Counted from the stretch's first letter, positions 1-18,109 are shown. The stretch: DNA of 24,000 nucleotides from Candidatus Bathyarchaeia archaeon (GCA_035528035.1 DATKZI010000032.1:10375-34374); one strand, 5' to 3'. Notes: generated from the sequence alone by a model not told the origin. Translations and numbers: made by a program.

Positions 1-2952
1 TATAAGATCAATTATACGGGAAATTTTCTTGGGATCAATAAATTTGAATGTTTGTTCATAAAATTCCAAAGGATATCTTTTCATACAATCAACTGCATGT
101 GACTCATCATCAACTTCTCGAGGATTAAGAATGATTCCCAAGGTTAATGGTGCGTCCATTGAACCTCCACGTGTTATTGGTAGAAATTGTTTTGAGAAAT
201 CCAAAAACCCTTCAAGCATTAATATAATAGCATCCTCATCTCCATCACAATTTCTTCTTTTTGCTGCTTGCCAATAAGGATGAGCTAGATTTCCTTTTAC
301 AGAGGTAAAACCAATTATCCTTCCAGTTATTCCAGATGAAGTATGTGGTGCTAACCCTATGACAAAATGCCCTATTAAATCTGATATTCTTGTTATATTA
401 TAATATCTTGGTATACCATAAACAAGTTCTAGCATATCATCAACATATTTGGAAACACGGTAAAGAAATTCACCATTATCAAGATTTAGAACAACATCTT
501 GGATTTTTAATTCGAGTATTTGATCATCATTAATTAATGGATCATTCTCTATATCGTGAGTGTAACCTAAATTTATTAATTGTTCAATAGAAGCATTAAC
601 TTCTTTTGGTTTGAAATGCATTAGAGGTATGTCTGTAGAGTCAAAACGAATTGTTCCATCCTTATAAACGTTCAATCCATGGCGTGCTCGTAGAAATCCT
701 TTTTCAAGTATTTCAGGTATTTTTCCTCTGTTCATTAATTTTTTAACACCTTTAGTGTCAGAAGGAATTGATCCTCCAAGAGCTTTCTTGACACGCGTAA
801 TATCTTCTCTAAGATTAACGCCTCGTTCTGAATATGTTACTGTTAGTCGATTGCATGATTTGCAAAATTCCTCATTAGTTTCTCTTCCACAACTTGGACA
901 ACTTCTAATATATTCAGTTCTTTTATTACATTTAGTACAAATAGGCATATGAGTAATTAGATGACAATTTTTACATTCTCTTTGAGCAACAGTAATAGTA
1001 ATAATCTCATTTTTGGCTGCTTCCAGTATAAGTCTATTATTTCCTCCTCCTTCCATTTCTAACGGAAATAGTGAATGGATTGGTGGATTCATTTTCCTTT
1101 CTTTTGCTTTTTCTGGTCTGCCCATTCTTGCACCAGTGTAAATAGGTGATTTTAATTTAATCTCAAAAGGAACCATGTGTGTGAAGGGAGGACCAGCTTC
1201 TCGTTCAATATCTTGAGAGTTTATTTTAGGATTTTTTAGTTGCATACAATGATCTAGGATTAAATTACTCTCTTCAATCACAATATGTTGTTTTATTACT
1301 TTATGTGGTAAACCTATACGTTCAAAAATACGTTTCTGTTTAAATTCCTTCATTAAAACTATTGCATCTCTATTTCTGGTAAATTCTTGTATTTTTTCCT
1401 TATCATTAATTCTTGAGATTATCATATCACTTCGTAATTCAAAAAACTCGTCAAAAGAAATATCATGCCAAGCATAAGTAAAAAAGGGATGTAATGGAAT
1501 CATAAATTCGTAACTAAAAGATAACGCTTCTTCTTGAGTGGGTTTGGTTTTCAATGGATTTGTCAGAAATTCGAGTAAACGGTTCGAATTCATATTAAGA
1601 TGTTTGGCTGCTTCATCTATATTATTACCAAATTTTTGCTTTATTCGTGATTCTAAATATAGTACCCACCACTCTTCTACAAAACCAGATGGAATTAAAG
1701 GATGGTTATTTTCTAGGAATTCACCAAAACCAACTAATAGGTCACCCAAGAAAAGTACCTCTTTTATTTTCTTATCATATTTTGTTGCTTGCTCATAGCT
1801 ATCAATTCTAAGGACCGAACCATCTTTCAAAAGTACAACTGGACCTTCAATTGAATCCACTGGCATAACAACACTCCCCTTACCAGGTCTTTCAGTTCGA
1901 ATATGTGTTCCTGGAGCAAGAAATTCCATAACTACTTTCATAGTAGCAGGATGGATTCCTATACCAGCTAAACCAGTATTCCTGGAGTGGCCATATCTTA
2001 TTCTAAATCCTCCCGGTTTTGATGGGTGAGAAAATATTGGTCGACCAGCAATTACATCTTTTATATACCCAAAAGACGGTTGTGTTTTTGCTTTTGCTTC
2101 TTCTTTTTCTTTATTTTCTTCAGCTTTTGCTACAGTTGCTTTAACGGATTTTAACCATTCCCAATCGGTTAATCCTACTGCATTAACAGTTTTGAGAATT
2201 TTCATAGCACGTCCCACAATACCATCATTCAAAACAAGACAAGCTCCACCTCTTAATGAATTAGTTTCAATTCGTGGTAAATCTCGAAAAGCTGAAACTT
2301 CATCAGGATTTGTACTTTCACCTGTGACTTCTACGGGTAAGTTCATTACAGCATATTCTATTTGTTCTGGAGTTGTAGGACTTTGTAAATGCATTACTCT
2401 ATTATATAAATCAACTTCTTCAACAAAACGCTTCATCTCTTGTCTAGTTGCTTTATATCGTGATAGATTAAGCGCTTTTCTTACATGATCAGATATTAAG
2501 ACTGTTAGAGCTGCTTCAGTACCACCAGCTGAACGAATAGGACCAGCGAAATAAACAGCCAAATATTTTGTGTTATCCTCATTACGTTTGATCTTAACTT
2601 TAGCAATCCCTTCTAAAGGAGCGGCAGTTACACCTTCTGTAAGAATCGCTAAAGCAGTTCTAATTGCTAAATCAGCTTTTTGTTCGTCGGGAAGATCACC
2701 TATTAATTTACCCATAGCTAGTTCTTGAGCTATCTTAAAAGCAACATTTTCTCTATCCATTTGTTTACTTAGACTACTAATTCGATCAGCGATACCCTTG
2801 ATACCCATTAATCCTTCAACTTTACCTGCAACATCTTTCGCAAGATGAATTTCAGGTTCAATTTCTGGATCTAAACCTTTTTCTCTTGCCTTGCTTGCCA
2901 AAGCATATAATTTATACACTTCTTCTTCTAGCATTTGAAAATAAGCTTTCAT
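1..2952 (-). CDS. polC: DNA polymerase II (PolD) large catalytic subunit DP2; first ~984 codons, C-terminus runs off the left edge
   Basis: Absent from the ORF track because no stop codon lies in the window. Manual minus-strand translation from the ATG at 2952..2950 is open to position 1: MKAYFQMLEEEVYKLYALASKAREKGLDPEIEPEIHLAKDVAGKVEGL... It contains YFAGPIRSAGGTEAA, GRPIFSHPSKPGGFRIRYGHSRNTG, a Cys cluster (CKNCH..CTKC..CPSCG..CKSC) and the DP2 catalytic KRRNCDGDEDA motif. In-frame TTG codons at 2970 and 2979 are alternative starts; an upstream in-frame stop lies at 3004-3006. Confidence 0.93.
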   Translation of the reverse strand, partial: MKAYFQMLEEEVYKLYALASKAREKGLDPEIEPEIHLAKDVAGKVEGLMGIKGIADRISSLSKQMDRENVAFKIAQELAMGKLIGDLPDEQKADLAIRTALAILTEGVTAAPLEGIAKVKIKRNEDNTKYLAVYFAGPIRSAGGTEAALTVLISDHVRKALNLSRYKATRQEMKRFVEEVDLYNRVMHLQSPTTPEQIEYAVMNLPVEVTGESTNPDEVSAFRDLPRIETNSLRGGACLVLNDGIVGRAMKILKTVNAVGLTDWEWLKSVKATVAKAEENKEKEEAKAKTQPSFGYIKDVIAGRPIFSHPSKPGGFRIRYGHSRNTGLAGIGIHPATMKVVMEFLAPGTHIRTERPGKGSVVMPVDSIEGPVVLLKDGSVLRIDSYEQATKYDKKIKEVLFLGDLLVGFGEFLENNHPLIPSGFVEEWWVLYLESRIKQKFGNNIDEAAKHLNMNSNRLLEFLTNPLKTKPTQEEALSFSYEFMIPLHPFFTYAWHDISFDEFFELRSDMIISRINDKEKIQEFTRNRDAIVLMKEFKQKRIFERIGLPHKVIKQHIVIEESNLILDHCMQLKNPKINSQDIEREAGPPFTHMVPFEIKLKSPIYTGARMGRPEKAKERKMNPPIHSLFPLEMEGGGNNRLILEAAKNEIITITVAQRECKNCHLITHMPICTKCNKRTEYIRSCPSCGRETNEEFCKSCNRLTVTYSERGVNLREDITRVKKALGGSIPSDTKGVKKLMNRGKIPEILEKGFLRARHGLNVYKDGTIRFDSTDIPLMHFKPKEVNASIEQLINLGYTHDIENDPLINDDQILELKIQDVVLNLDNGEFLYRVSKYVDDMLELVYGIPRYYNITRISDLIGHFVIGLAPHTSSGITGRIIGFTSVKGNLAHPYWQAAKRRNCDGDEDAIILMLEGFLDFSKQFLPITRGGSMDAPLTLGIILNPREVDDESHAVDCMKRYPLEFYEQTFKFIDPKKISRIIDLI

Positions 2953-3102
2953 GTTATCAGAGGCAGCCAATTCAACCAATTTAGTTTCACAACTTGTATT
3001 TGTTTATCGTTTCACGTGTTTAGTTTATCCTATTTCTTAAGTAGAAAATTCTATTTAATAATTCTAGTACTACGATTCACTTTAGTTTTTTTTAGTTTTA
3101 AA

Positions 3103-4698
3103 TTAAGGAATTAACAAATAAGCATTTTCTATAATTGATTTCCCTATCAATGAAGGAATTAATCCTAAAATAATTAATCCTAATGCAACGATCGTCCCAA
3201 TAATTGATGTCATTGATACATCTTGACTTAATCCTCCCGAGATTAAAGTTGAATCCTGATCTGGTTTATCAAATAAAAGATACTTGATGACAACGAGATA
3301 ACTGATAAGCATCAGTACTAGGATAAAGATAATTATTATTGTGTAACTGATATAATTCAATTGGATCAATGTAAATAGTAGCATATAGAGATTAACTCCA
3401 CCAAACATAGGTAATAAACCAATCATTGAAGCTAATCCGACAATTAGATTAAATGTTGTTAATGGATATTCTCTTCCCACACCACGAAGATCGATTAGTT
3501 TTTCACTTCTATTCCTTTTAATCATCAAATTATCTTTAGCAATAAAAGCAAGAAATGATGTTATACCTATGTTGATTATCTGTAAAATACTATAACCAAA
3601 GCATTCCTTAACTGAAAAGAGTGTTTCCTCGGTTCCTGAGTTAACCATTCCACCTATAGATATTCCAGTTAAAATCACACCAATATTTACAAAGATTGTA
3701 TAGATGATAATTTTTGATAAAGTAATATTCTCTTTATCTTTTCGAGTTACCTGATAGACAAGAACAAGAACTCCTTCTAAAGCTGTCATTAGTCCAATTA
3801 TCGCTAAAATTAATGGATAATTAATTATCGTCATTTGTGTTGTATCAAAGAATGAAAATAATACCTTGAAGATTGACAACAATGCTAAACCACTAACTAT
3901 TCCCACTGAGAATACTTGTGTACTAGCACTTGATTTTTCTATTGCATTTGGCATCCAAAGATTCAGCATGAAAATATTTGCAAGTAGACCAAATCCTACA
4001 ATAGTTAGTGCTATTATTAAATAGATAATTGCTTTTGCATCTGTAGTGATTCGTTCTGAATTCAATAAAACAACGTCATCATGAATATAATCATAATTTA
4101 GTGTGCCAAATAAACCATAACATAATATTACTGCAGTTAATATGAATACTACACTCAAACTAATCAAAATAAAAGCTCGCATTCCACCTTCTCTAAGATC
4201 CTCTTGACGTTTCTGAAATGCAATTAATGTTATAAGAGATATCCCAATTATTATCCAGCCAAGTAGTGTTGTAAAGAAATCATTTGCTAAAACACTGGCA
4301 TTAATTCCTGTAACTAAGAAGAGTATTAGTCCGATATAAATAGGTCCTTCAGCTTTACCTCTTTGCTTGACGGATTCATAGAAGAGTATTAACACAACAA
4401 TTATGTTTAGCACTAGAAGGAAGATACTGGTAAAACCATCCACTTTAAATTGAACGCCACTAGGAGCACTAAATTCTGCCCCTAAAACAGTTTTATAGAA
4501 TCCAAACAAAGCACCAGAGCCATTTTTAATTCGATAATACAAAGCAGCCAATATCATAATATTAGCGATAATACCCCCAGCAGCTATTTCTCCTGAAAAT
4601 CCTTTCAACCATTTCTTTAATCCAATAATGAATATAGCCATTATGAATGGTAGAAATATTGTTGATAAGATTAGAAAGTTAACAGAAATTTCTGCCAT
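3103..4698 (-). CDS. Antiporter-like polytopic membrane subunit, MrpD/NuoM/NuoN family, highly divergent
   Basis: ORF track 3103..4761 (552 aa), TM-rich throughout. NLWMPNAIEKSSASTQVF aligns to the W-L-P-D-A..PT..S core of proton-conducting membrane transporter subunits. I prefer the ATG at 4698 (MAEISVNF...) because it forms a TAATG stop/start overlap with the upstream gene. The longer ORF would overlap that gene by 64 nt. Confidence 0.75.
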   Translation of the reverse strand: MAEISVNFLILSTIFLPFIMAIFIIGLKKWLKGFSGEIAAGGIIANIMILAALYYRIKNGSGALFGFYKTVLGAEFSAPSGVQFKVDGFTSIFLLVLNIIVVLILFYESVKQRGKAEGPIYIGLILFLVTGINASVLANDFFTTLLGWIIIGISLITLIAFQKRQEDLREGGMRAFILISLSVVFILTAVILCYGLFGTLNYDYIHDDVVLLNSERITTDAKAIIYLIIALTIVGFGLLANIFMLNLWMPNAIEKSSASTQVFSVGIVSGLALLSIFKVLFSFFDTTQMTIINYPLILAIIGLMTALEGVLVLVYQVTRKDKENITLSKIIIYTIFVNIGVILTGISIGGMVNSGTEETLFSVKECFGYSILQIINIGITSFLAFIAKDNLMIKRNRSEKLIDLRGVGREYPLTTFNLIVGLASMIGLLPMFGGVNLYMLLFTLIQLNYISYTIIIIFILVLMLISYLVVIKYLLFDKPDQDSTLISGGLSQDVSMTSIIGTIVALGLIILGLIPSLIGKSIIENAYLLIP

Positions 4699-6617
4699 TA
4701 AATTGAACCTCCCATTATTAGGAATATACATATTAATAATACCACTGAGAGAACTGCCCAAATAATACTACCAAAAGGTGCCTTAATCCGAGTCCAAGAG
4801 AAGAATCGTCCTAAATAGTCAATTGGTCTAAAGATCAATAGCTCATAAATTTTATCCAAATATAGACCGTTTACAAAGAATTTCTTAAAGGGCAAAATAA
4901 ATTTACTGTTCTTAAATTTGAATAGAATATTTCCTTCCCCATCTCGATAAATAAAATAACCTGCAAGAAATGCTGATATAGATGTCAGTAAAATAATAGG
5001 GGATGAAATAAAATTAGCAGTAAAGGGTGAATCATAATTTAAGGTGAAAATTCGTCCAAGCAATCCTGAAAATAGAAATGGTTTGGGATAACCTATGAGA
5101 ATGAGAACCAGACCAGATAACATCGACCAACCTAAAGCTGCTCCCGTTGAGATAAGAGAAAGTGATTTCAAAGGTCTGGTAGAATAATCCTCAACCATTT
5201 CTCCATAAAATATCTGCATATAAACTTTCATTATAGCAAAAATAACAAACATAGAGCAAATTATTGTTAAAATATAAAGTCCCCAATGTGTAGGAATATT
5301 ACTTGTACGTAATGCTTCAAATATCATATCTTTTGAAAAATACATACTTGATGGGAAGATTCCTGCAAAACTTGCTATGGAGAAAACACCAAATAAATGT
5401 AAAAGAGGGTGTTTGTCTTTTATACCATTAACTCGAGAGATGTCTTTAATTCGCAAGGATTCAATGACTGATCCAAAAACAAGAGCTAGAGCTATTACCG
5501 TCGGTGCACCTGCTATAATTTGAAAAATAGTTCCAACAAGTCCAATTGTAGTGTTGGAGCTAAAACTCAATAAAGCTAGACTAAGTTGTGCAATTCCTGC
5601 ACCAATTGTTACTCGATTAATGTTTTTAGCAACTAATATGAAGCCCACAACTACAACTAACGAAAGTATAGCTATCCAACCAATCAACATAAATGGAGCA
5701 GAATGATATAGCTCAATATTTGTACCTTCTTCTAACCCCTTGCGCGAAAATAATGGATAAAAAGTACATAGAAGAAATAAGCCTATATTTCCCACTGTAA
5801 CTGAAATTAAGCTGGATGAGATTGGGAGTGGTGCTTTAGAAATATCATAATCCGATTTTTGACCACCTATAGGCCATAAAAGAAAAGGTATTTGAGCTGA
5901 TTTAATTAGAGCACCTATTGCAATAAATAACTTGATTAGCAATCTTGTAGTCCTACTTGAGTCACCAATAATCCTTATCGGTTGTTGGGACCAAACATTG
6001 ATAATATTACTAATTACTGGTGTTTTGAATGCTACAAGAATAAAGCTGAATCCAATTAGAAGGAATATATCGCCAATTACACTCATGATCAAATATCTTA
6101 TTGCTGCTTTTCCTGCTTTGTCTCCTTCTTCACCCGATTTCTTATACCAGTGTGAAATAAGGAAAAATGCTCCAATAGCTGCAACTTCGATTCCTCCAAA
6201 CATCCAAAACAAGTTATTAGAGAAGATTATCATCATCATTGCTGAAACTGTTAATTGAAAGAAGAACCAATATCGTGTGCGATTTCGATCATAACTCATA
6301 TAGGATATTGAGTATAATGCTAATAGAGCTGAAAGACATATGATAGCACATGCTAAAACAATTGAGACTTCATTGATACGTAAACCAATAACTATCCCTG
6401 GCAACCAACTTACAGAATAAGTGGCTGGAACGTGAAGATACTTGAATAATATAAATGAGACTATTATTGATGGAAGGAAGATCAATATAAATATCAACCA
6501 ATCTCGAGTCTTACCTTCTGCTGCAACAGCATCTTCAAGTCTTCCAAAGAAAATCCCTAAAAGTGTACCTACTGCAGGAATAATAATCAACAGTGCTGCT
6601 AATAATAAACCACTCAT
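4698..6617 (-). CDS. MrpA/NuoL-like antiporter-type membrane subunit
   Basis: 639 aa. It has a NuoL-type N-terminal region (YMSYDRNRTRYWFFFQL). FGGIEVAAIGAFFLISHW matches GWE.vGl.SylLI. IKSAQIPFLLWP matches KSAQ.P...WLP. FSKDMIFEAL matches F.SKD.I. C-terminal GLYLDKIYELLIFRPIDYLGRFF plus a final TM resembles the NuoL/MrpA lateral-helix segment. ATGA overlap with the upstream gene at 6614-6617. Confidence 0.85.
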   Translation of the reverse strand: MSGLLLAALLIIIPAVGTLLGIFFGRLEDAVAAEGKTRDWLIFILIFLPSIIVSFILFKYLHVPATYSVSWLPGIVIGLRINEVSIVLACAIICLSALLALYSISYMSYDRNRTRYWFFFQLTVSAMMMIIFSNNLFWMFGGIEVAAIGAFFLISHWYKKSGEEGDKAGKAAIRYLIMSVIGDIFLLIGFSFILVAFKTPVISNIINVWSQQPIRIIGDSSRTTRLLIKLFIAIGALIKSAQIPFLLWPIGGQKSDYDISKAPLPISSSLISVTVGNIGLFLLCTFYPLFSRKGLEEGTNIELYHSAPFMLIGWIAILSLVVVVGFILVAKNINRVTIGAGIAQLSLALLSFSSNTTIGLVGTIFQIIAGAPTVIALALVFGSVIESLRIKDISRVNGIKDKHPLLHLFGVFSIASFAGIFPSSMYFSKDMIFEALRTSNIPTHWGLYILTIICSMFVIFAIMKVYMQIFYGEMVEDYSTRPLKSLSLISTGAALGWSMLSGLVLILIGYPKPFLFSGLLGRIFTLNYDSPFTANFISSPIILLTSISAFLAGYFIYRDGEGNILFKFKNSKFILPFKKFFVNGLYLDKIYELLIFRPIDYLGRFFSWTRIKAPFGSIIWAVLSVVLLICIFLIMGGSI

Positions 6618-7027
6618 ACTATTTCCACTCCTTTATCATCTTTTTGAGTTTCTTCTTTTTCAGATGTAGAAGTTACTTCTTCTTGAGGTTTTTTAATTAA
6701 CCCCTCAAACTCGAAGTTGAAATCTAATATTGTAGAATCACCACTCTGTTTTAATTGTCTTTCAATGGATGTTCCTACAATCAGAAAAACTAATCCAATT
6801 ACTACAATAAATATTGATAGTGTGTGTGCTAAAGGTGAAGGGTAGAGTGTAGAACCTTCATTTCCTAATCCAAAAGAGAGTAATAATAAATTTGCTGCCA
6901 TCAGTAATATCTCTATACTAAATATGACACGAAGAAAATGTTTGCTTGTAATTAACCCATAAATACCTATACCAAATAATGTTATAACAGCTATTAATGT
7001 ATAAGGAAAAAGCGTAGACCAATCCAT
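6614..7027 (-). CDS. MrpC/NuoK-like small membrane subunit with acidic C-terminal tail
   Basis: 137 aa with three predicted TM segments. FSIEILLMAANLLLLSFG resembles the NuoK/MbhG TM2 with its Glu. YPSPLAHTLSIFIVVIGLVFLIVG aligns to MrpC dPLPQALiLTAIVI.f. The tail is acidic (KKPQEEVTSTSEKEETQKDDKGVEIV). TAATG overlap with the upstream gene at 7027. Confidence 0.7.
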   Translation of the reverse strand: MDWSTLFPYTLIAVITLFGIGIYGLITSKHFLRVIFSIEILLMAANLLLLSFGLGNEGSTLYPSPLAHTLSIFIVVIGLVFLIVGTSIERQLKQSGDSTILDFNFEFEGLIKKPQEEVTSTSEKEETQKDDKGVEIV

Positions 7028-7362
7028 TAATAGCTTCTCCTCCTTTGTTCCTGCATTGGTTTTGAAATCATATGTTTATACCCTACAAAATAATATGCTG
7101 AAATTACTCCCAATAGAACAATTATAAAAATCAATAATAAATCTAAAACTCTAAAAGTCCAAAGATATTTACCAATTTGCTTTACTAAAATAACAAAATT
7201 AAAACTTTCTGGTGTCGCTCCTCCTGAATGGAATAAACTCGAATCTAAATCAAGTAATGATATTGTAATGATTAATACAAATAATCCTGAAACAATTAAT
7301 CCTATACCTCGGACAAACCATTGATTTGTTCTTCGCTTAGTTTCATCACTCATTTTAAACAC
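7027..7362 (-). CDS. Small membrane protein, possibly MnhB-domain (MrpB/MbhE)-like
   Basis: 111 aa, 2-3 TM. WTFRVLDLLLIFIIVLLGV loosely matches the yRg.DTlgE..Vl motif of MnhB-domain proteins (R and D kept, Glu position is Ile). Its position immediately upstream of the MrpC-like gene matches Mrp/Mbh gene order. The assignment is tentative. Confidence 0.4.
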   Translation of the reverse strand: MFKMSDETKRRTNQWFVRGIGLIVSGLFVLIITISLLDLDSSLFHSGGATPESFNFVILVKQIGKYLWTFRVLDLLLIFIIVLLGVISAYYFVGYKHMISKPMQEQRRRSY

Positions 7363-7368
7363 CCTTGA

Positions 7369-7791
7369 TTATATTTCCCTTAAATCTCTTTGAACTGTGC
7401 GTTTAGATCTTACCTTTGCTCGGTCGATTAGCATCAAACTAAAGAATATTAGAATGACTACGAAGAGGATAAATGGCCATATATCTCTTAACGATAAGTT
7501 ATTCTTAAATCCAAAAAATGATACCATAAGAAAAATTGCACACACGCTGAAACTAATGATATAAACTGTATACAGATATAAATCATTTAGATGTTTACCA
7601 GTAGTTTTTACTTTAGTTATTGGTTCTTTAGTATCCTCAAATGTTTGGGATTGAGTTTCATTTGTTGGTTCCATCTTTTCTGTATCCTTATCCTTCTCTA
7701 TAACAGAGAAAAGGGTCATTAAGATAAATATTATTATCCCAAATAAAGCTAGAAATGTTCCCAATACCTTAATAGTCAATCCAATGAACAT
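7369..7791 (-). CDS. Membrane protein of unknown family; first gene of the coupled membrane-subunit block
   Basis: 140 aa, ATG start. An N-terminal TM is followed by a ~45-aa acidic/Thr-rich loop (EKDKDTEKMEPTNETQSQTFEDTKEPITKVKTTGK), 2-3 more TM segments and a basic tail. It is 6 nt from the next gene and 56 nt downstream of the 896-aa gene. No MrpE/F/G motif recognised. Confidence 0.5.
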   Translation of the reverse strand: MFIGLTIKVLGTFLALFGIIIFILMTLFSVIEKDKDTEKMEPTNETQSQTFEDTKEPITKVKTTGKHLNDLYLYTVYIISFSVCAIFLMVSFFGFKNNLSLRDIWPFILFVVILIFFSLMLIDRAKVRSKRTVQRDLREI

Positions 7792-7847: not shown

Positions 7848-10538
7848 CTAATTGGTTATTTTCGTGAAAGATAATTGACTACAAATTTGATTATATGTTT
7901 GTAGTAATAAATATTGTAGGTTTGATATTCCACCATGTATTTTTTTACCCATCTTATTTATTGTTATTAAACCAGGTTCAATTGTTTGATATGCTCTTCT
8001 AAAGGCATCTGAAATTATTAGTTCTGTTAAACTATTAATTTGTTGGTTTTCAAACGTCAGATAGGAATATACTCGACCTATTATCACTGGTTTTTCTTCT
8101 TCTGAAATAATGAAAAACTTTGATATTTCTTCTGAAATTATAGGAGGTTGAATTGGCGAGAAACTGGACAAATAATTTTTCTCATCGTCTGGTTTTGATA
8201 GATGTATTGTTGTGAAAAGTCTCAATGGTTTATTTAGGAGTAATCTATCACCTATTAAATTATATAATTCGTCTTTGAAATAATAACAAGATTTCATAAA
8301 TTGATACCTCTCAATATCACTATTGGGCAAGCTTTCTAATCTCTTATTAATTTCATCATTAACTCCTGATCGTAAAAATCTTGTAATGATATTTTCATGA
8401 ATCGGGAGATTTTCTATGTCAGTAATTTCCAAACCCAAACGAAAAACTGTATCAATTACTTGATCAAAATCAAGATTCCATTTTCTAAAGTTAGTAAATA
8501 TATCCCGAACTTCTTTGCTATATTCTGAATCCTTTTGAGGTAGTGGAACCGTTAAAAGTTGCATTGAAGTGATGTTTGTTGTTAATCCTTTAAAATTAAC
8601 AGATGTTGCTTCTGAAATTAAATCTAATTCTTTTTCCGAGAGGTTTTTGTTAGCATTCTTTAATTCATCAATTAATTTTCTAGTATATGGTACACTGATA
8701 TCTTGTATTCTCCCAAGGAATCCTGATACAAGGTATGCTTTCTTATTTTCACTAGTAATTCTGCCTTCCACTGCATCTGTTTCAATTTGAGTTACAATAT
8801 TAATTATACGTTCAGATGTCTTTCTAAATTGTTCATTCACATGTTCTACATCTATCGTTAATTTTCTTTCGGGGGTATATTCAATATTCGAATCAGGATC
8901 GAAAATTTTCAACTTTGCCTCAATATCATCAATAATCCTACTGAGCTGACCAATTAACCATGTTCTTGGACTAGAAAATGCTTGTATTATATCGAAAATT
9001 AATCCCATTTCAATTGTTAAGGATTCTGAAATATTGTAAAAAAACATTCCATCATTTGATATAACGGGAAGATTTTTCTTATCAATTGAAATGTTACCAT
9101 ATAGATAATCATGAATCCAGCTATAAATTCTACTTATGGCTCGTATTAAAGACTGGTTTTTTGTGATATTACTTTCTGGAGTTGCTGAAGGTAAATTGAT
9201 ATTTATTTTTTTAATTTCCTGATTTTCGGTAGTGATTACCTCTTTATCTTCAATAGGAGATTTCATGTATGTTGGTATACTGGGAGCGGTATTAGCTTTT
9301 CCTTTGGAAGATTTTTTAGGTGATAGGATTTCCTTTTGAGATTTCAAATCATCAAGATTTAGTGGTTTAGAAAGAGCTGTATTGATTATGTTCACAAATT
9401 GATTGAGATAACTTTTTGGGACGATTGTTGATTTAATATCAATAATGGCAGATAAGAATTCTTTTGCTAAATCAAAATCAATTAATAATTTAACAAATTG
9501 CTTCAAGTAAGTTTGTTCAAATGGATGATCACCTAATTCTAATAGAAAATATTTAACAAATTGCCAACCAATTAATTTTTCATTGCCATGTTTCAATTGT
9601 GAAATATTCTGTGAAATACTTCGTAAACTAATTCCAGAAGGACCTCGAATTGGTAAAAGATTGCAAACAAAATTCTCGAAAACTTTTGGTAATTCATTTT
9701 CATAAAAAATTTCTATGCGTTTTATGATATCATCAGAATAGAGTATTAAAGGCATTAAACCTGCCTTTAGAATATAATTGAACAAAGAAGCTGAAACTTG
9801 ATTTTTAAATTCTAATGTTTTTAGATCATTAGTAAATTTCTCTTTAATTACTTGGACATAATTCCAATATTCTTTTTTCCCAAAGAAATTGATAAAATCA
9901 AATGTTGGAAAATAGTCCGGGTAATATTGTTGTTCGATCCATTGAGAAAATTCACGTATTTGATATTCCAATAAAGAATCATTAAAGGTTAAAATAGTAA
10001 ATTTATCTTTTTCTTGTATGAAATTTGTATTTTCGTAAAACAGAGATTTCTTTGATCTTTTGCGATAATCGTTAATGGCATCAGCTAAAATTTGAATAGT
10101 TTCTTGATAAGAAGGAATATAACCTTCAATATTTCCTTTTATTAATTTCTTCGCTAAATGACTTCTTTGACAGATTATAACCATAATAGAATAACATAAT
10201 TCGCTTAAAGCTAACTCTTGTTCTCTAGATAATTCACCCTCTCGAACAATTATAGCAACACGCATTTGAGCACCATGTTTAATTTCAGGACCTATTAAAC
10301 CTAAAATATCATTCATTTGTGTTAAATGGCGAATGTATACATGAGCATTATAGAGCTCCGAATGTCGAAGTTCTCCTTGTTTTAATAATTCCTGAAACAT
10401 ATTTGACATGCCTGTAAGGGCGCCACTTAGTAATGTTGCATCAGAATCATCACCTTGAAAAACCCCTGCAGTAATAAAAGGAACGGACCCAGTCATAACT
10501 ACTAAATCGATTTTTTTAGCGATTATTTCTGTGCCCAT
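7848..10538 (-). CDS. Large (~896 aa) soluble protein of unknown function; N-terminal alpha/beta domain with a longin/roadblock-like secondary-structure pattern (tentative)
   Basis: ORF track 7848..10547 begins at a GTG. The ATG at 10538 (MGTEIIAKK...) is preceded by GGTGA with 5-nt spacing, so I prefer it. The first ~130 aa read as beta-beta-alpha-beta-beta-beta-alpha (LVVMTG / PFITAGV / ATLLSGALTGMSNMFQELL / LRHSELY / HVYIRHL / RVAIIVRE / EQELALSELCYSIMVII). A central Lys/Ser/Pro/Thr-rich linker (SPKKSSKGKANTAPSIPTYMKSPIEDKE) follows. The rest is Asn/Ile/Lys-rich and probably helical, with no catalytic motif recognised. Confidence 0.7.
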   Translation of the reverse strand: MGTEIIAKKIDLVVMTGSVPFITAGVFQGDDSDATLLSGALTGMSNMFQELLKQGELRHSELYNAHVYIRHLTQMNDILGLIGPEIKHGAQMRVAIIVREGELSREQELALSELCYSIMVIICQRSHLAKKLIKGNIEGYIPSYQETIQILADAINDYRKRSKKSLFYENTNFIQEKDKFTILTFNDSLLEYQIREFSQWIEQQYYPDYFPTFDFINFFGKKEYWNYVQVIKEKFTNDLKTLEFKNQVSASLFNYILKAGLMPLILYSDDIIKRIEIFYENELPKVFENFVCNLLPIRGPSGISLRSISQNISQLKHGNEKLIGWQFVKYFLLELGDHPFEQTYLKQFVKLLIDFDLAKEFLSAIIDIKSTIVPKSYLNQFVNIINTALSKPLNLDDLKSQKEILSPKKSSKGKANTAPSIPTYMKSPIEDKEVITTENQEIKKININLPSATPESNITKNQSLIRAISRIYSWIHDYLYGNISIDKKNLPVISNDGMFFYNISESLTIEMGLIFDIIQAFSSPRTWLIGQLSRIIDDIEAKLKIFDPDSNIEYTPERKLTIDVEHVNEQFRKTSERIINIVTQIETDAVEGRITSENKKAYLVSGFLGRIQDISVPYTRKLIDELKNANKNLSEKELDLISEATSVNFKGLTTNITSMQLLTVPLPQKDSEYSKEVRDIFTNFRKWNLDFDQVIDTVFRLGLEITDIENLPIHENIITRFLRSGVNDEINKRLESLPNSDIERYQFMKSCYYFKDELYNLIGDRLLLNKPLRLFTTIHLSKPDDEKNYLSSFSPIQPPIISEEISKFFIISEEEKPVIIGRVYSYLTFENQQINSLTELIISDAFRRAYQTIEPGLITINKMGKKIHGGISNLQYLLLQTYNQICSQLSFTKITN

Positions 10539-10742
10539 ATATTTCACCTAATATAATTATATTAACAACAAATACTTTTTAGATAGCTAAAAAAATCTTT
10601 CCTTGATATCTTGGAAAAAAATAAACTGTGAATCAATTATTTTTTTCACGGGGTTTTTATAAGTAAAAACACATTTGATTAAATTTCAAAATCACTAAAT
10701 GAAAATAAAAATAGAAAAAAAAGTATAGAAAAACATCAAAAA

Positions 10743-11474
10743 CTAGATTTGATGCATCCATAACAAACTTCTATAAACACCGATAATTCTATCTTTAAGC
10801 TCTTGGGCTGCTTTTGCTTCATTAAATTTCTCTAAACCTTTGAGGACTTTTCGACAATAATCACATTCTTCACCATTAATGACTCTTTTTTCATCGATTT
10901 CTAAAAAGACTTCTGATTCATAATAGTCCTTTAAGTTTGGAGCAATACCAATGATATCATAATCTCGAGGATCAACAAAAGTCTCAGTATACCAGCTTAT
11001 TCGTAAATCCTTTTTGTGAACAAAAAGTTTTAGCGTGGCAATAGCTATTTCCATGAGGGCTAAATCACCTACAACTATAACAGTTTTACCTGTCATAATG
11101 GGTTTCATAACATATTCTAAGTTCCCACCAAATGTTTTGAGCATTAAGGTGATGCTAGCTCTTGCTTCTGGTCTTGGTGTCCCAGCAGCTGCTGATGCTG
11201 TACTGGATGCTGATGCTTGATATGTTGTTTCAGCAGCTGATCTCGCAGCAACTTCTTCTCTGCTTGTTCTTGCAATGGTTGATGCTCGATGCTGTCGTAA
11301 TGCAAGATTTTTATCAAGAAGAAGAGTAATAACATGATCATCATGTAGAAAAGATACTTGCCATAACCCACCGACTTGTGTCTTCAAATCATCTACATAA
11401 ATTGGTATAGTTATATCCTTATCACAGCCTTTACATGTGAGAGATACTTCTTTTAATGGTACCCTAGCGGACAA
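10743..11474 (-). CDS. Hypothetical two-domain protein with Ala/Ser/Thr-rich linker
   Basis: 243 aa. TTG start preceded by GGAG about 10 nt upstream, and no in-frame ATG before residue ~110. The N-terminal beta-rich part carries CKGC. The locally GC-rich linker reads ARSAAETTYQASASSTASAAAGTPRPEARA. The C-terminal alpha/beta part contains GKTVIVVGDLALMEIAIATLKLF...DIIGIAPNL and a late CDYC. Confidence 0.6.
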   Translation of the reverse strand: MSARVPLKEVSLTCKGCDKDITIPIYVDDLKTQVGGLWQVSFLHDDHVITLLLDKNLALRQHRASTIARTSREEVAARSAAETTYQASASSTASAAAGTPRPEARASITLMLKTFGGNLEYVMKPIMTGKTVIVVGDLALMEIAIATLKLFVHKKDLRISWYTETFVDPRDYDIIGIAPNLKDYYESEVFLEIDEKRVINGEECDYCRKVLKGLEKFNEAKAAQELKDRIIGVYRSLLWMHQI

Positions 11475-11686: not shown

Positions 11687-13390
11687 TTAAATCAAAAAAG
11701 CTATTAGTATAAAGATTATTCCAAAATAGAATGATACAGTCATAGCTAATGGAAGCAATCTTTTACTTCGAAGTACTATTCTTGGAAGATCTTTAAACTT
11801 GTATGGAAATTTCCTCACTTCCCGTAAAGAGAAAAAGGGAATAGATGTTGCAACTCTACCTATAAATCCTACAGCTAATGCTATTGTAATAGCACGATAT
11901 TGAGAATATCCTGGAGAAAATCCAAAAAAGGAAATATTTCCCATAAGGAAATCCATTAAATAACCACCAAACAATGACCCAAGGAATAATATTATTCCAT
12001 AAAACATATTGTAAAAACCAACATACATGCTTCTTTCTTTTTCAGGAGTAACATCAATCAAATAAGCTTCTAATACAGCAGAATTCAAGCCAAGTGGTAT
12101 ACAAATAACTGCGTGAAGAATTATAATGTGCCAAACTTGAGTTGCAAACATATAACTAAAAGGCATAGCAGCTAAAATTAATCGATTCATAATCATTTGT
12201 GGTTTTCGACCTATAAGGTCAGATACACGACCAGCATAACGTATAGTAGTTAAAGTCGCTGTGCTCATTACTACCGAAAAAATAGCTATCTGTAAAAAAT
12301 CAGCTCCAATATCTGATCTTTGTCTTATAGGAAATAATGGCCAACACATTGACATAAAAAAGGATTGAATTCCAAAGACAATGGTAAATTTCATGAAATT
12401 CTTATTTCTAAGCATTAAGAGGATTCTATTGGATGAAGTGGGAATTTCGTGTGTAGTTTTTGATTTTGTTTTAATTTTTTTATCTACTAAAATCTCTGAA
12501 GAAACACAAACTGTTTTACTTCCTGAATTAGTAATTTGTTGAGGGTCCTTATCACTAGCTAGCACACCTTTGATTACACAAGGTTCTATCACAGTTTTCA
12601 GTTTTTTATTTGCTTTCTTTTGATCTTTCTCATGTAATAAAGCATTTAATTTTTGAGCTCGTTCTTTAGCTTTTTTCTCTTTAAAAGTGAAAATAACAAC
12701 AGCTGAGGCTAAACCAGCTATTAACCCTATTAAAATCGGAAAGAAGTAACTCCTTGGAAAAACCCTGGAACCCAATGAGAATTCTCCGACAATATAATTG
12801 AATAATACTCCTCCTAGAATTGTTGAGAGAATATATGGTAATTGTGAAAACCAATTAAGGTTAGCAATAATTTTCCCCCGAACTTTAGCAGGAGTAATCT
12901 CTCCTAGTAATGCCATCCAAGCAGGAGCACCCATTGAAACAACAAGAGAGATGATTCCAGCGATAACTATGATCATGGTTACATTATTTACAAATAAAAG
13001 TAAAACCCAAATGCTAGAATAGAGAATATTTGATAATGCAACGAAAATTGAGCGTCGTTGAACACGATCAGATAAAAAGCCAAACAATGGTTGAACAAAA
13101 TTACCTAATAAATTTGTAACTGCTCGTAACCAACCCATTTGACCACCAGTAGCTCCTAAATCAACAGCAATGGTAGTTAGAAAAGGATCAACCATTCCAT
13201 AACTAAAAGTCGCTAAAGCAGATCTTCCATAAATTTTCTCTCGATCTGGTATTTTTATTAATTCATCATCAGATAAATCAACTTTGCCAGGAGGTATCTT
13301 TTTTATTTCATCAGTTAATGGAAGAAGAGGAACTGCAGTTATAGGAGCAATAGTTTGTTTTTCAGCTCCCGAAGGTTCATTATCTGGCAA
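11687..13390 (-). CDS. Major facilitator superfamily transporter with long Lys-rich central cytoplasmic loop
   Basis: 567 aa, about 12 TM. MFS motif A-like GFLSDRVQRRS lies after TM2. A central loop of ~100 aa separates the two halves (KEKKAKERAQKLNALLHEKDQKKANKK...). The TTG start at 13390 is preceded by AGGTG with 8-nt spacing. Confidence 0.8.
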   Translation of the reverse strand: MPDNEPSGAEKQTIAPITAVPLLPLTDEIKKIPPGKVDLSDDELIKIPDREKIYGRSALATFSYGMVDPFLTTIAVDLGATGGQMGWLRAVTNLLGNFVQPLFGFLSDRVQRRSIFVALSNILYSSIWVLLLFVNNVTMIIVIAGIISLVVSMGAPAWMALLGEITPAKVRGKIIANLNWFSQLPYILSTILGGVLFNYIVGEFSLGSRVFPRSYFFPILIGLIAGLASAVVIFTFKEKKAKERAQKLNALLHEKDQKKANKKLKTVIEPCVIKGVLASDKDPQQITNSGSKTVCVSSEILVDKKIKTKSKTTHEIPTSSNRILLMLRNKNFMKFTIVFGIQSFFMSMCWPLFPIRQRSDIGADFLQIAIFSVVMSTATLTTIRYAGRVSDLIGRKPQMIMNRLILAAMPFSYMFATQVWHIIILHAVICIPLGLNSAVLEAYLIDVTPEKERSMYVGFYNMFYGIILFLGSLFGGYLMDFLMGNISFFGFSPGYSQYRAITIALAVGFIGRVATSIPFFSLREVRKFPYKFKDLPRIVLRSKRLLPLAMTVSFYFGIIFILIAFLI

Positions 13391-13985: not shown

Positions 13986-14285
13986 TGAAGTATAAACCAA
14001 ATTATCAAATAAAAGGATTATGCACTTTAACAGTAAAAGAGTAAAATCATAGTTTGAAATTAAATTTTTATCGTTTTTAGGGAAATCTTCACATGAAATT
14101 TCCTAATGTAAAAATCACCATTATTAGTTTAATATCAAAGATTTTTAGAGAAAAGTAGAATTATTATTACTTAAGATGAAGGTAGTATTAATATACTAAA
14201 AGTAAAAAGCTATTGAATATACCCCAAAGACATAACAACCAAAAAGATTTTAAAATAAAATATGACGCAAATATAACGTAACGCT

Positions 14286-14360
14286 GCCGCGTTAGCTCAG
14301 CGGTAGAGCTCTCGGCTGTTAACCGGGTGGCCACAGGTTCAAATCCTGTACGCGGCGCCA
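14286..14360 (+). tRNA. tRNA-Asn (anticodon GTT) with genomically encoded CCA
   Basis: Cloverleaf folded by hand. Acceptor GCCGCGT/ACGCGGC. D arm GCTC-AGCGGTA-GAGC. Anticodon arm CTCGG-CTGTTAA-CCGGG. Variable loop TGGCC. T arm ACAGG-TTCAAAT-CCTGT. Discriminator G, then CCA at 14358-14360. A T-run (TTGTTTTCT) follows. An A/T-rich TATA-like TTTTAAAATA lies at 14248-14257, about 30 nt upstream. Confidence 0.95.
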
Positions 14361-14368
14361 ATTGTTTT

Positions 14369-14626
14369 CTAAAATTCTTCGTCGATTTCATGTAAGATTT
14401 CTAATGCTTTCTCAAGTTTATTGTTAATATAAAAACTCATATCACCATAATCCTCATCATGTAAAATTCTTGAAACATCTATAAAAGCTTCTTCTAATGC
14501 TTCATGAGCCATTTTCATTAATTCTTCTTTCTCCTCTTCCTCTTCAATCGCAGCGAATTTTGCTCCCACAAATAAAGAACCATTTCCTACTGCTTTTACA
14601 AAAAAGAAATTAAAATACTCAGGCAT
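14369..14626 (-). CDS. Small acidic hypothetical protein
   Basis: 85 aa. The ATG is preceded by GAGGA about 9 nt upstream. A hydrophobic N-terminus (MPEYFNFFFVKAVGNGSLFVGAKFAAI) is followed by a strongly acidic helical region (EEEEEKEELMKMAHEALEEAF...HEIDEEF). It is convergent with the tRNA; its stop lies 8 nt after the CCA end. Confidence 0.5.
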   Translation of the reverse strand: MPEYFNFFFVKAVGNGSLFVGAKFAAIEEEEEKEELMKMAHEALEEAFIDVSRILHDEDYGDMSFYINNKLEKALEILHEIDEEF

Positions 14627-16905: not shown

Positions 16906-18003
16906 TTGACCTCGATGGATGATATTAAGCAGCTACTTTTGGACAAGAAGGAAGAAGAAATTTTAAAGCTGATGAAAAGAGAAAAGAAAAATATTCGAGA
17001 TATTTTACTTGGAATTGCAGAAAACGATTCCGATTGGAAATTTAGAAGAGATGCAATTAAGATTCTTGGAAAAGCAAAAATCAATGAAAGCATTGAACTT
17101 TTGCAAAAAATTCTGTTGAAAGATCATTTAACAGTTTTAAGGAAATTTGCAGCAAAAGCAATTGGTTCTATTGACGATCCTGCAGGGATACCACCATTGT
17201 TAGATGCACTAAAAACATCTAAAGATCCTGCTGTGATTGTTGAGATTAGTAATGCATTGGGATGTTTAAAAGCAACCGAAGCTATCGAACCTTTAGTTGC
17301 CTTACTCAAGACAAGCAAGGATGGTGAAATACGAGAAAATGCTGCAGAAGCCTTAGGATTGATTGGTGATAAAAAAGCAGTAGATAGTTTATTAGGAATT
17401 TTGAAAAATGATAAAGAAGATTGGGTAAGAGGACAAGCAGCAGAAGCTTTAGGATTAATTGGTGATAAAAAAGCTGTTCCTGATTTAATCACCACCCTAA
17501 CCAAAGATGGTGGTTTAGGAGTTGCTGTAAAAACTGCAACAGCATTAGGACGCTTAAAAGATACAGAAGCTGTTGAATCATTAATTAATTTCATACAAAA
17601 AGGTCAAAATGTAGAAAATAGACGAGCTGCAACTTATGCTTTAGGTGAAATTGGTGATAAGAAAGCTGCAGAAATCTTCTTAGAATTATTGGAATCTGAT
17701 GAAGATGAAACTGTTAGATACTGGTCCTGTTTATCTTTAGGTTTTATGAAATATTCTAAAGCCTCAAATACTATGTTAGAAATTTTGAAAAATGATTCCA
17801 GCGCTCGCGTTCGAAAAACTGCTGCTCTGTCAGTTCGTCAATTACCTCCTAAATCAAAGAAAGCGATAAAAGAACTTTTAGGAATAAAAGAAGCTGAAGT
17901 TGATCCAGAAGTAAAAGAGAAAATTCAAGAAATTATTTTAAAAATAGCTGAAGAACAGGATTGTTCCAGTGAAATGGAATTAATAAAGAAAATGGAACTT
18001 TAA
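16906..18003 (+). CDS. HEAT / PBS-lyase-type repeat protein
   Basis: 365 aa with at least 7 repeats of the type vRxxAAxALGxIGDKKAVxxLixxLkd (e.g. IRENAAEALGLIGDKKAVDSLLGILKND, VRGQAAEALGLIGDKKAVPDLITTLTKD). The TTG at 16906 is preceded by GGAGG (16894-16898) with 7-nt spacing. The alternative ATG at 16915 has poorer spacing. Confidence 0.85.
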   Translation: MTSMDDIKQLLLDKKEEEILKLMKREKKNIRDILLGIAENDSDWKFRRDAIKILGKAKINESIELLQKILLKDHLTVLRKFAAKAIGSIDDPAGIPPLLDALKTSKDPAVIVEISNALGCLKATEAIEPLVALLKTSKDGEIRENAAEALGLIGDKKAVDSLLGILKNDKEDWVRGQAAEALGLIGDKKAVPDLITTLTKDGGLGVAVKTATALGRLKDTEAVESLINFIQKGQNVENRRAATYALGEIGDKKAAEIFLELLESDEDETVRYWSCLSLGFMKYSKASNTMLEILKNDSSARVRKTAALSVRQLPPKSKKAIKELLGIKEAEVDPEVKEKIQEIILKIAEEQDCSSEMELIKKMEL

Positions 18004-18013
18004 CAACAATCAT

Positions 18014-18042
18014 ATTATGAGCTTTGCTCATAATTATTTTTT
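18014..18042 (+). terminator. Hairpin plus T6 run downstream of the HEAT-repeat gene
   Basis: ATTATGAGC-TTT-GCTCATAAT forms a perfect 9-bp stem (18014-18034). It is followed by TATTTTTT with a T6 run at 18037-18042, 11 nt after the stop codon. Confidence 0.55.
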
Positions 18043-18109
18043 ATTTATTAATGTAATAATAACAGATTCTTAGTAATAGATAAAAACTATTTTTAGAAAT
18101 AAACGAATT

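Follow-up and report, generated by a model that had tools for sequence, protein, structure and literature searches.

Can the antiporter-like subunits of a complex I-type membrane arm be kept under selection after the charged residues that serve ion translocation have been replaced? The question is raised by a 24,000-nucleotide stretch of DNA from Candidatus Bathyarchaeia archaeon (GCA_035528035.1 DATKZI010000032.1:10375-34374), here called the window, which is archaeal and AT-rich (~31% GC) and encodes at 3103-6617 two large antiporter-like subunits, one resembling NuoL (the L-like subunit) and one resembling NuoN, MrpD and MbhH (the D-like subunit). An earlier sequence-only reading, made by eye against MrpA/MrpD/NuoL/NuoM motifs, had suggested that the canonical ion-translocation residues are substituted in both proteins; each peptide string that it quoted occurs in the two minus-strand reading frames. 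The explanation favoured here, with a probability of roughly 0.55, is that the two subunits would belong to an orphan, repurposed membrane arm that no longer pumps, is structurally conserved and has taken on a new role.

A five-gene operon with two antiporter-like subunits

The two subunits are encoded by the last of five genes, J1-J2-K-L-D, with lengths given below in amino acids (aa) and with transmembrane segments abbreviated to TM:

7369..7791, minus strand: gene 1, J1, small 3-TM protein of 140 aa, from the open reading frame (ORF) call
7027..7362, minus strand: gene 2, J2, equivalent of the NuoJ C-terminal half, 111 aa as listed, from hhalign and PF00499
6614..7027, minus strand: gene 3, NuoK/MrpC-like protein of 137 aa, from PF00420
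4698..6617, minus strand: gene 4, NuoL-like antiporter-like subunit of 639 aa, from PF00361 and PF00662
3103..4698, minus strand: gene 5, NuoN/MrpD/MbhH-like (D-like) subunit of 531 aa, from PF00361

The D-like ORF had been listed as 3103..4761, opening at TTG 4761, but translation most likely begins at the ATG at position 4698, which yields a 531-aa product of a length shared by all orthologues. A codon check placed this ATG over the L-like stop codon as TAATG, with a second TAATG at the junction of the J2 stop and the NuoK-like start and an ATGA at the K/L junction. Because these stop and start codons overlap, the five genes form one translationally coupled operon. They are syntenic in every locus long enough to display them, in the fixed order 243-aa protein, optional 899-aa protein, J1, J2, K, L, D and PolD.

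PF00361 matched both large subunits, the D-like protein at 52 bits and the L-like protein at 86 bits (Pfam cut-off 21.5), with PF00662 (Proton_antipo_N) also matching the latter at 28.8 bits (cut-off 24.5). The best NCBIfam match of the L-like protein was NuoL; the NCBIfam models score far under their equivalog cut-offs for the proteins of the window (NuoL 154 bits against 556), and these are therefore very divergent members of their families.

The D-like subunit

The register of the D-like subunit was established by single-sequence phmmer against all PDB chains and by a family profile built from 17 D-like orthologues, with MbhH (6cfw_H), MrpD (6z16_D and 7qru_D), MbsH (6u8y_H) and MbsH' (6u8y_X) as structure references. 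The protein aligned end to end with MbhH, MrpD, MbsH and MbsH', one register was found in every printed alignment, and the best PDB match of the family profile was MbhH 6cfw_H (E 5.8e-25). In the profile alignments the canonical positions are occupied as follows:

4252-4254, minus strand: codon of I149, at the TM5 Glu position
3982-3984, minus strand: codon of L239, at the TM7 Lys position
N246, minus strand: in place of the His three turns after the TM7 Lys
3889-3891, minus strand: codon of G270, at the TM8 Lys position
3556-3582, minus strand: Q373/I377/S381, at the TM11 His/His/Lys positions
3388-3390, minus strand: codon of L437, at the TM12 Lys position

Judged from these alignments, every canonical protonatable position of the D-like subunit is replaced. 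The by-eye alignment had suggested as much for four charged positions, and its register holds, since phmmer and the family profiles give it against several solved structures and put no Glu or Lys back at a canonical position of this subunit.

In a profile search spanning 1.84 billion representative proteins, the D-like family comprised only ~8 clusters, set off from all further matches by a steep drop in score (287 to 168 bits); alignment to the family model then covered the 142 nearest outgroup representatives. The TM5 Glu is present in 139 of these 142 relatives as against none of the 21 members of the D-like family, the TM7 Lys in 103/142 as against 0/21 and a TM12 Lys or Glu in 116/142 as against 0/21, with the canonical charge likewise missing at TM8 (G270) and TM12 (L437) in all 21. 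None of the 142 nearest relatives was missing all of the canonical residues.

The AlphaFold2 (AF2) model computed from the family alignment (predicted template modelling score, pTM, 0.81) had MrpD 6z16_D and 7qru_D as its top Foldseek matches, with TM-scores of 0.78-0.85, and showed a discontinuous TM12, TM7 being of low confidence there. Within the modelled helices a set of polar residues is newly conserved, namely N98, N241, N246, E308, N338 and N376, of which N98 and N246 are invariant, E308 near-invariant (at least 90%) and N241 near-invariant, all four being family-specific. A K/W/E motif in the TM1-TM2 loop is conserved and likewise specific to the family.

The L-like subunit

Single-sequence phmmer against PDB chains and a profile of 29 L-like orthologues were used for the register of the L-like subunit, the profile being referred to Mycobacterium smegmatis NuoL (8e9g_L), Nqo12 (4he8_L), MrpA (6z16_A) and NdhF (6hum_F), and Paracoccus denitrificans NuoL (8qby_L) being aligned by single-sequence phmmer. 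Flanking motifs (W248-P250, GLLP-x-GG, FSKD and IKSAQ) anchor the register of the two subunits, and for the L-like subunit the profile alignments gave:

6186-6188, minus strand: E144, the TM5 Glu, kept
5901-5903, minus strand: K239, the TM7 Lys, kept
5805-5807, minus strand: I271, at the TM8 His position
5496-5522, minus strand: Q366/G370/V374, at the TM11 His-x3-His-x3-Lys positions
5328-5333, minus strand: K429/D430, the TM12 Lys-Asp, kept

E144, K239 and K429-D430 lie in the GGIEV, IKSAQ and FSKDMIF motifs that the sequence-only reading had named as retained, and the replacement that it had reported for the H-x3-H-A-x-F-K motif is seen in the profile alignment at Q366/G370/V374. It had also described a broken-helix segment with an insertion and no His. 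Both features are there, the His position being I271 and a 7-residue insertion preceding D258, but the insertion is unrelated to the loss, being shared by Heimdall NuoL proteins that are otherwise intact, and was rejected as part of any functional shift.

Residue counts from the 29 orthologues were set against those from 90 canonical NuoL/MrpA sequences. The TM8 His (90/90 canonical), the second TM11 His (88/90) and the TM11 Lys (90/90) are each found in 0/29 members of the L-like family, the first TM11 position being H, Q or N, and the TM7 Lys is present throughout both sets (90/90 and 29/29). The TM5 Glu (86/90 canonical) is kept in 22/29, with Ala or Ser in the other 7/29, and the TM12 Lys (90/90) in only 12/29, where Arg (13), Leu (2) or Tyr (2) replaces it; Gln242 is invariant alongside the TM7 Lys and the TM12 Asp is near-invariant. 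Since the TM5 Glu and TM12 Lys vary among orthologues they are not required family-wide, and some residues kept in the L-like protein of the window thus appear dispensable across the family. The GSVIH of canonical NuoL reads GSVIE in the window and GSVI(E/D/N) in 28/29 orthologues, placing a new acidic or polar residue on TM11, and an AAEGKTRDW motif is conserved in a loop specific to the family.

The AF2 model, again from the family alignment, had a pTM of 0.86 with breaks at TM7 and TM12 and NuoL/ND5 as top Foldseek matches (TM-scores 0.75-0.81). It gave the C-terminus as a short lateral helix of ~35 residues (residues ~574-609) followed by an anchor TM at 613-635, and the lateral-helix motif FVNGLYLDKIYE aligns to NuoL LNKWYFDEIYE. 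As such, of the traits that mark the NuoL/MrpA subtype, the N-terminal domain and the lateral helix with its anchor TM are present and the TM11 His-x3-His-x3-Lys is absent. From sequence matches and models together, both large subunits are assigned to the PF00361 antiporter-like superfamily, with a predicted 14-TM core.

Conservation and selection

Each of the 21 D-like and 29 L-like orthologues shows the residue losses. The orthologues come from metagenome-assembled genomes (MAGs) labelled Heimdallarchaeota, some of them Candidatus Gerdarchaeota, and GCA_016927615.1, GCA_016649575.1, GCA_054386155.1 and GCA_016840905.1 are examples of assemblies that carry the module; the operon is confined to a narrow Heimdallarchaeia group of Gerdarchaeota-type MAGs. 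One D-like orthologue (P0014, 45% identity) is labelled candidate division Zixibacteria bacterium at NCBI, and this is probably a mis-binned contig or labelling oddity rather than a bacterial occurrence.

Ratios of nonsynonymous to synonymous substitution (dN/dS) were estimated by the Nei-Gojobori method from comparisons with the two closest relatives, which are 89% and 86% identical. Values were 0.07 for the D-like, 0.08-0.10 for the L-like and 0.10-0.12 for the K-like protein, those of the two large subunits being similar to those of neighbouring genes (PolD 0.05-0.06, a major facilitator superfamily (MFS) transporter 0.09), with 0.18-0.24 for the two small proteins J1 and J2 (J1 0.19-0.24). 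Even in the most degenerate subclade the ratio is still 0.11-0.16. Reading frames are intact in all full-length orthologues, which span 527-533 aa for the D-like and 637-648 aa for the L-like family. Because the losses are fixed family-wide, dN/dS lies at 0.07-0.16 and the frames are intact, the replacements are a conserved functional shift and not decay. Whether they are conserved or sporadic was a check that the first reading had itself proposed, and the result, fixation in both families under purifying selection, speaks for the shift.

The same evidence bears on the suggestion that the pattern is an artefact of a wrong register or marks pseudogenes drifting after a loss of function. In keeping with that suggestion, AF2 confidence is low around the D-like TM7, and over longer ranges the module subunits diverge faster than their neighbours (42-56% identity as against 73-85% for PolD and the 243-aa protein). 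A register error was nonetheless rejected, as phmmer on single sequences and family profiles give the same alignment to several independent structures and flanking motifs anchor it, and pseudogene decay was rejected on the intact ORFs, constant lengths and dN/dS of 0.07-0.16, which together make this the least probable of the explanations by a long way.

The small subunits

J1 has three predicted TM segments, a long TM1-TM2 loop and a conserved basic C-terminal tail (SKRTVQ+DMR), and its orthologues stand upstream of the module in all loci reaching far enough upstream. Its similarities are faint: PF00499 was matched below cut-off (E 7e-5) in 3/7 members, the profile reached NuoA chains at E 0.3-1.2 only, and hhalign gave no significant match to a Heimdall NuoA-like protein, a NuoJ N-half or a full NuoJ. 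J2 (108-111 aa across the family, with the ATG at 7353 as its likely true start) corresponds to the C-terminal half of NuoJ (TM4-loop-TM5), with an invariant N-terminal QWF.RGIG motif, a LWTFRV.DL motif and a basic tail; its family profile matched residues 83-143 of the 166-aa NuoJ of a Heimdall operon (L020, below) by hhalign (E 2.2e-4), and 5/8 members matched PF00499 at model positions 64-144. No clear NuoJ N-terminal half (TM1-3 with the coupling helix) was found in the operon by hhalign.

The NuoK-like protein matched PF00420 at 50 bits, over the cut-off, and its profile aligned to NdhE (6hum_E), Nqo11 (4he8_K) and MrpC (7qru_C). One of its two canonical TM glutamates is in place in the profile alignment:

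6911-6913, minus strand: codon of E39, the TM2 Glu, kept

The TM3 Glu position is hydrophobic, and the C-terminus has an extension specific to the family, with an LDFNFE motif, of which the F-x-F is invariant, and then an acidic tail. In one subclade (L011/L012/L014) the NuoK-like TM2 Glu is changed to Val or Ile jointly with the change of the NuoL-like TM5 Glu to Ala and of the TM12 Lys to Arg.

Origin from a Heimdall membrane arm

No NuoH, NuoB, NuoD or NuoI is encoded in the 24-kb window, nor among the called genes up to 10 kb either side of the D-like gene in five loci (L001-L003, L015 and L016). The genes of the NuoH/MbhM/HycD and NuoB/NuoD types that stand alongside the arm in complex I and in the MBH, FHL and Ech enzymes are accordingly missing from the window and the gene-called loci.

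One of the nearest outgroups of the D-like family (P0161, locus L022) ends an operon of NuoB, NuoCD with a [NiFe] large-subunit domain, NuoH and NuoI followed by an arm of a 94-aa NuoJ N-half, an 88-aa protein, NuoK, NuoL (646 aa) and the N-like subunit itself (519 aa). A second relative, from Heimdallarchaeaceae (P0160, locus L020), ends an operon of HypE-HypF-NuoH, a 132-aa NuoA-like protein, NuoJ, NuoK, NuoL (611 aa) and the N-like subunit (504 aa). These Heimdall group-4 operons hold the nearest sequence relatives of both large subunits, at ~25-27% identity, and have the identical J-K-L-N order with two antiporter-like subunits, NuoJ being split in L022. Their NuoL proteins share with the L-like protein of the window the 7-residue insertion in the TM7b-TM8 loop (WLSAGDTVDIDAMQGP) as well as the short lateral helix and single anchor TM. 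Because the nearest outgroups lie in operons with NuoH and a [NiFe] large subunit and the insertion is shared, the module is an orphan copy, in derived form, of the J-K-L-N arm found in Heimdall group-4 [NiFe]-hydrogenase or complex-I-like enzymes. A preprint describes the membrane arms of these enzymes as shortened (bioRxiv 10.1101/2024.07.04.601786). Nothing in the searchable literature on Asgard and Heimdall antiporter-like subunits was found to describe this module or antiporter-like subunits that are fully uncharged.

The likeness has its limits. The full operons run B-CD-H-I-J-J-K-L-N (L022) and H-A-J-K-L-N (L020), whereas the module of the window has no NuoH or redox genes nearby; likewise, their NuoL proteins retain every canonical residue and their N-like subunits lack only the TM7 Lys, with or without the TM8 Lys, whereas in the window all canonical residues are lost from the N-like (D-like) subunit and the central ones from the L-like subunit. 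The nearest full operons come from assemblies (GCA_029856365.1 and GCA_964534625.1) other than those in which the orphan module was found.

Partial degeneration of the pump residues seems, from the alignments, to be common among the nearest relatives of the D-like subunit, even in the NuoH-containing operons of P0160 and P0161. In a group of them (loci L020-L023 and representatives P0159-P0161, P0167, P0181, P0220 and P0246) the TM5 Glu is kept, with Thr replacing the TM7 Lys and Asn the His close to it. A third type of operon (L027) comprises H, A, J, K and one partly degenerate N-like subunit, with Ser at the TM7 Lys and Arg at the TM12 Lys. Its 137-aa NuoK (11964-12377) has an extra C-terminal TM helix (KINWSMILSIVFAITIICVFILIL) that resembles the NuoL anchor of L020, and the arrangement looks as if NuoL had been lost and its anchor fused to NuoK.

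These operons allow for a split enzyme, in which the module would be the distal arm of a group-4 [NiFe]-hydrogenase or complex-I-like enzyme with NuoH/B/CD/I encoded elsewhere, the arm serving as a passive anchor or as a reduced, L-only pump. The (A/J)-J-K-L-N order is the 3' part of the B-CD-H-I-J-J-K-L-N and H-A-J-K-L-N operons, the arms of L020 and L027 are already apart from B/CD/I, and the N-like subunits of Heimdall operons are already partly degenerate (TM7 Lys to Thr or Ser). The proposal is nevertheless judged unlikely, although the best placed of the alternatives. Every related operon seen has a NuoH gene alongside those of the arm and none of the syntenic loci of the module has one, no clear NuoJ N-half was found, and the NuoK TM2 Glu is lost in one subclade; moreover an uncharged N-like subunit between K/J and L would break the axis that carries the coupling signal, leaving L undrivable. 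As relatives with NuoH and a redox module retain all NuoL residues, the loss tracks the orphan state.

Comparison with known systems

The Mrp antiporters (CPA3; PDB 6z16, 7qru and 7d3u) offer the closest parallel in composition, being likewise stand-alone, lacking a redox module and having two antiporter-like subunits with a NuoK/MrpC-like subunit. The D-like model finds its best structural match in MrpD, and the lateral helix of the L/A-type subunit in Mrp spans one D-type subunit, an arrangement to which that of the window module is likened. MrpA and MrpD retain the TM5 Glu, the Lys of TM7, of TM8 and of TM12 and the His residues, which the subunits of the window do not all retain. MrpA-type matches carry an extra domain, whereas the L-like protein has only 639 aa and is without it. 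No Pfam or NCBIfam match to MrpB/E/F/G or to the MrpA C-terminal domain (PF13244/PF20501) was obtained in the operon or the window, and membership of the Mrp antiporters was rejected on these grounds. The Na+ site proposed for Mrp lies in MrpB/E/F/G and the C-terminal domain of MrpA.

In the membrane-bound hydrogenase (MBH) of Pyrococcus furiosus (6cfw), NuoJ is split into two small proteins accompanied by a NuoK-like subunit. MbhH, the best PDB sequence match of the D-like family, keeps all of its charged residues, and MBH has the NuoH-like MbhM, a hydrogenase module and Mrp-type E/F/G subunits that the module of the window has not. With complex I NuoL and NuoN (4he8, 3rko and 8e9g) the folds are the same, and the L-like subunit shares Proton_antipo_N, the lateral-helix motif and the TM12 Lys-Asp; the J(C-half)-K-L-N order and, in the window, the NuoK TM2 Glu are further traits of complex I and the group-4 [NiFe]-hydrogenases. 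The module differs in having no NuoM, in a modelled lateral helix that at ~35 residues is visibly short for complex I and in the loss of the central His/Lys residues, and none of NuoH, A, B, C, D and I could be confidently identified in it. Of the traits expected of a functional channel, the TM5 Glu/TM7 Lys pair and the central TM8 and TM12 residues are absent from the D-like subunit and the TM8 His from the L-like one.

The parallel with Mrp raises the prospect of a stand-alone transporter of altered chemistry, a minimal Mrp-like device in which ions or a substrate would pass through L alone or along the family-specific polar residues together with the small subunits. The Mrp-like gene set and the fit of the D-like model to MrpD would suit it. 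So would the residues that the L-like subunit retains (the TM7 Lys and Gln242, both invariant, the TM12 Asp, which is nearly so, and the TM5 Glu in most orthologues), the GSVI(E/D/N) change in 28/29 of its orthologues and the newly conserved N98, N241, N246, E308, N338 and N376 of the D-like subunit. Set against this are the missing MrpB/E/F/G genes and MrpA C-terminal domain, the hydrophobic rather than polar replacements at the canonical D-like positions, and the replacement of the TM12 Lys by Arg, Leu or Tyr with the Glu losses of one subclade, such that no single charged site but the TM7 Lys is required. A transporter of this kind is therefore rather improbable, and more so than a split enzyme.

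A membrane arm that probably no longer pumps

The TM5 Glu/TM7 Lys pairs of this superfamily are described as both essential and invariant, the TM8 and TM12 Lys being where proton paths form (PMC7419157). Under the favoured explanation of a repurposed arm, the central hydrophilic axis, which normally connects these pairs with the Lys/His proton sites of TM8 and TM12, would be gone. The D-like (N-like) subunit, hydrophobic or small at all such sites, would be unable to conduct protons in the canonical way, and because NuoN and MrpD lie between NuoL/MrpA and the small subunits it is placed by analogy between K/J and L, where it would interrupt the axis. The L-like subunit in turn lacks the bridging TM8 His and TM11 His/His/Lys, with Arg for the TM12 Lys in nearly half of the family. 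Because the axis and the bridging residues are lost, canonical redox-driven or antiport proton translocation is most likely no longer carried out. The TM12 site in L may be kept for charge or structure rather than for proton shuttling, since the change from Lys to Arg is frequent and the TM5 Glu dispensable, and the remaining charges of L (the invariant TM7 Lys and near-invariant TM12 Asp) could be structural or a vestigial half-channel.

What is retained would point to a structural role. The 14-TM cores, the broken TM7 and TM12 and an L lateral helix that would clamp one neighbour, together with newly conserved cytoplasmic loops and tails specific to the family, would be consistent with a stable membrane platform or docking scaffold. 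It is speculated that the K/W/E loop motif of the D-like subunit, the AAEGKTRDW motif of the L-like subunit, the basic J1 and J2 tails and, in K, the LDFNFE motif with the acidic tail make up a docking surface. A fuller version of this account, held more tentatively and at somewhat less than even odds, is that in a Heimdallarchaeial lineage a complex-I/MBH-type arm was separated from NuoH and the redox module to become a non-pumping, five-subunit 'pseudo-pump' under strong selection, for example as a docking platform for cytoplasmic partners via the newly conserved charged loops and tails.

Several points weigh against a purely structural arm. AF2 confidence is poor around the D-like TM7, where residues 215-249 have a predicted local distance difference test (pLDDT) score of less than 50. 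Genes for NuoH and a hydrogenase module may lie elsewhere in the genome, their products docking to the arm, membrane-arm genes being already apart from B/CD/I in L020 and L027. There may be some ion movement through L, most family members keeping the TM5 Glu, TM7 Lys and TM12 Lys/Arg-Asp, and in the D-like subunit E308, N98, N246 and N241 outline a candidate alternative polar path. The sequence-only reading had left the choice between altered ion or substrate chemistry and a non-pumping structural role, a pair of alternatives that the analysis supports; between them it leans towards non-pumping because the TM12 Lys is Arg in 13/29 orthologues, Glu residues are jointly lost in a subclade and no NuoH or redox gene lies nearby. 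That reading had missed the operon context, the insertion as a lineage marker common to intact relatives and the variability, among orthologues, of the residues kept in the L-like subunit.

Neighbouring genes

Downstream of the D-like gene the module is followed by the large subunit of PolD:

1-3003, minus strand: most of the PolD large-subunit gene, which runs off the left edge of the window

There is no intein in the part of PolD visible in the window or in the PolD of other relatives (~1166 aa), and in a close relative (locus L017, 5000-9919) the PolD large subunit has 1639 aa with an intein (Intein_splicing and LAGLIDADG). Upstream of the module lie two proteins:

7848-10547, minus strand: ORF of 899 aa, flanked by the module and the 243-aa gene, with no similarity in Pfam, NCBIfam or the PDB
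10743-11474, minus strand: protein of 243 aa with N-terminal and C-terminal CxxC motifs and an Ala/Ser-rich linker, with no family or PDB match

The 899-aa ORF has counterparts at 53-60% identity in L003, L007, L009 and L010, is absent from L001, L005 and L015 and looks, from this distribution, like a variable insertion. The 243-aa protein is 80-95% identical across all relatives, always directly upstream of the module and far more conserved than it. Both were considered as partners of the module; neither has any Pfam, NCBIfam or PDB similarity, and the 899-aa gene is missing from many syntenic loci and so not obligatory. Further features of the window are:

14286-14360, plus strand: tRNA-Asn (GTT)
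14188-14391, opposite strand: a 67-aa ORF overlapping the tRNA-Asn, probably spurious
16906-19549, plus strand: a 365-aa all-HEAT-repeat protein, then a full-length EutA-like protein (PF06277, E 8e-145)

Genes for an OppC-type ABC permease and a ComB-like 2-phosphosulfolactate phosphatase come after the EutA-like gene, and the neighbourhood is syntenic in relatives.

Implications for Heimdallarchaeial bioenergetics

The operon would amount to a natural experiment in which the structural role of the antiporter-like fold is separated from ion translocation with both subunits under strong purifying selection. Placed beside its relatives it suggests a spectrum of degeneration in Heimdallarchaeial complex-I-like arms, from the change of the TM7 Lys to Thr or Ser in operons with NuoH up to total loss in the orphan. 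Such degeneration bears on the number of ions translocated per enzyme and hence on the bioenergetic reconstruction of the archaeal relatives of eukaryotes. If annotated by homology as "NuoL", "NuoN" or "MnhD", the genes would make these genomes appear, wrongly, to encode a proton pump or a Na+/H+ antiporter. If the fuller version of the account is true, the closest archaeal relatives of eukaryotes would hold a natural 'pseudo-pump', analogous to the pseudo-enzymes.

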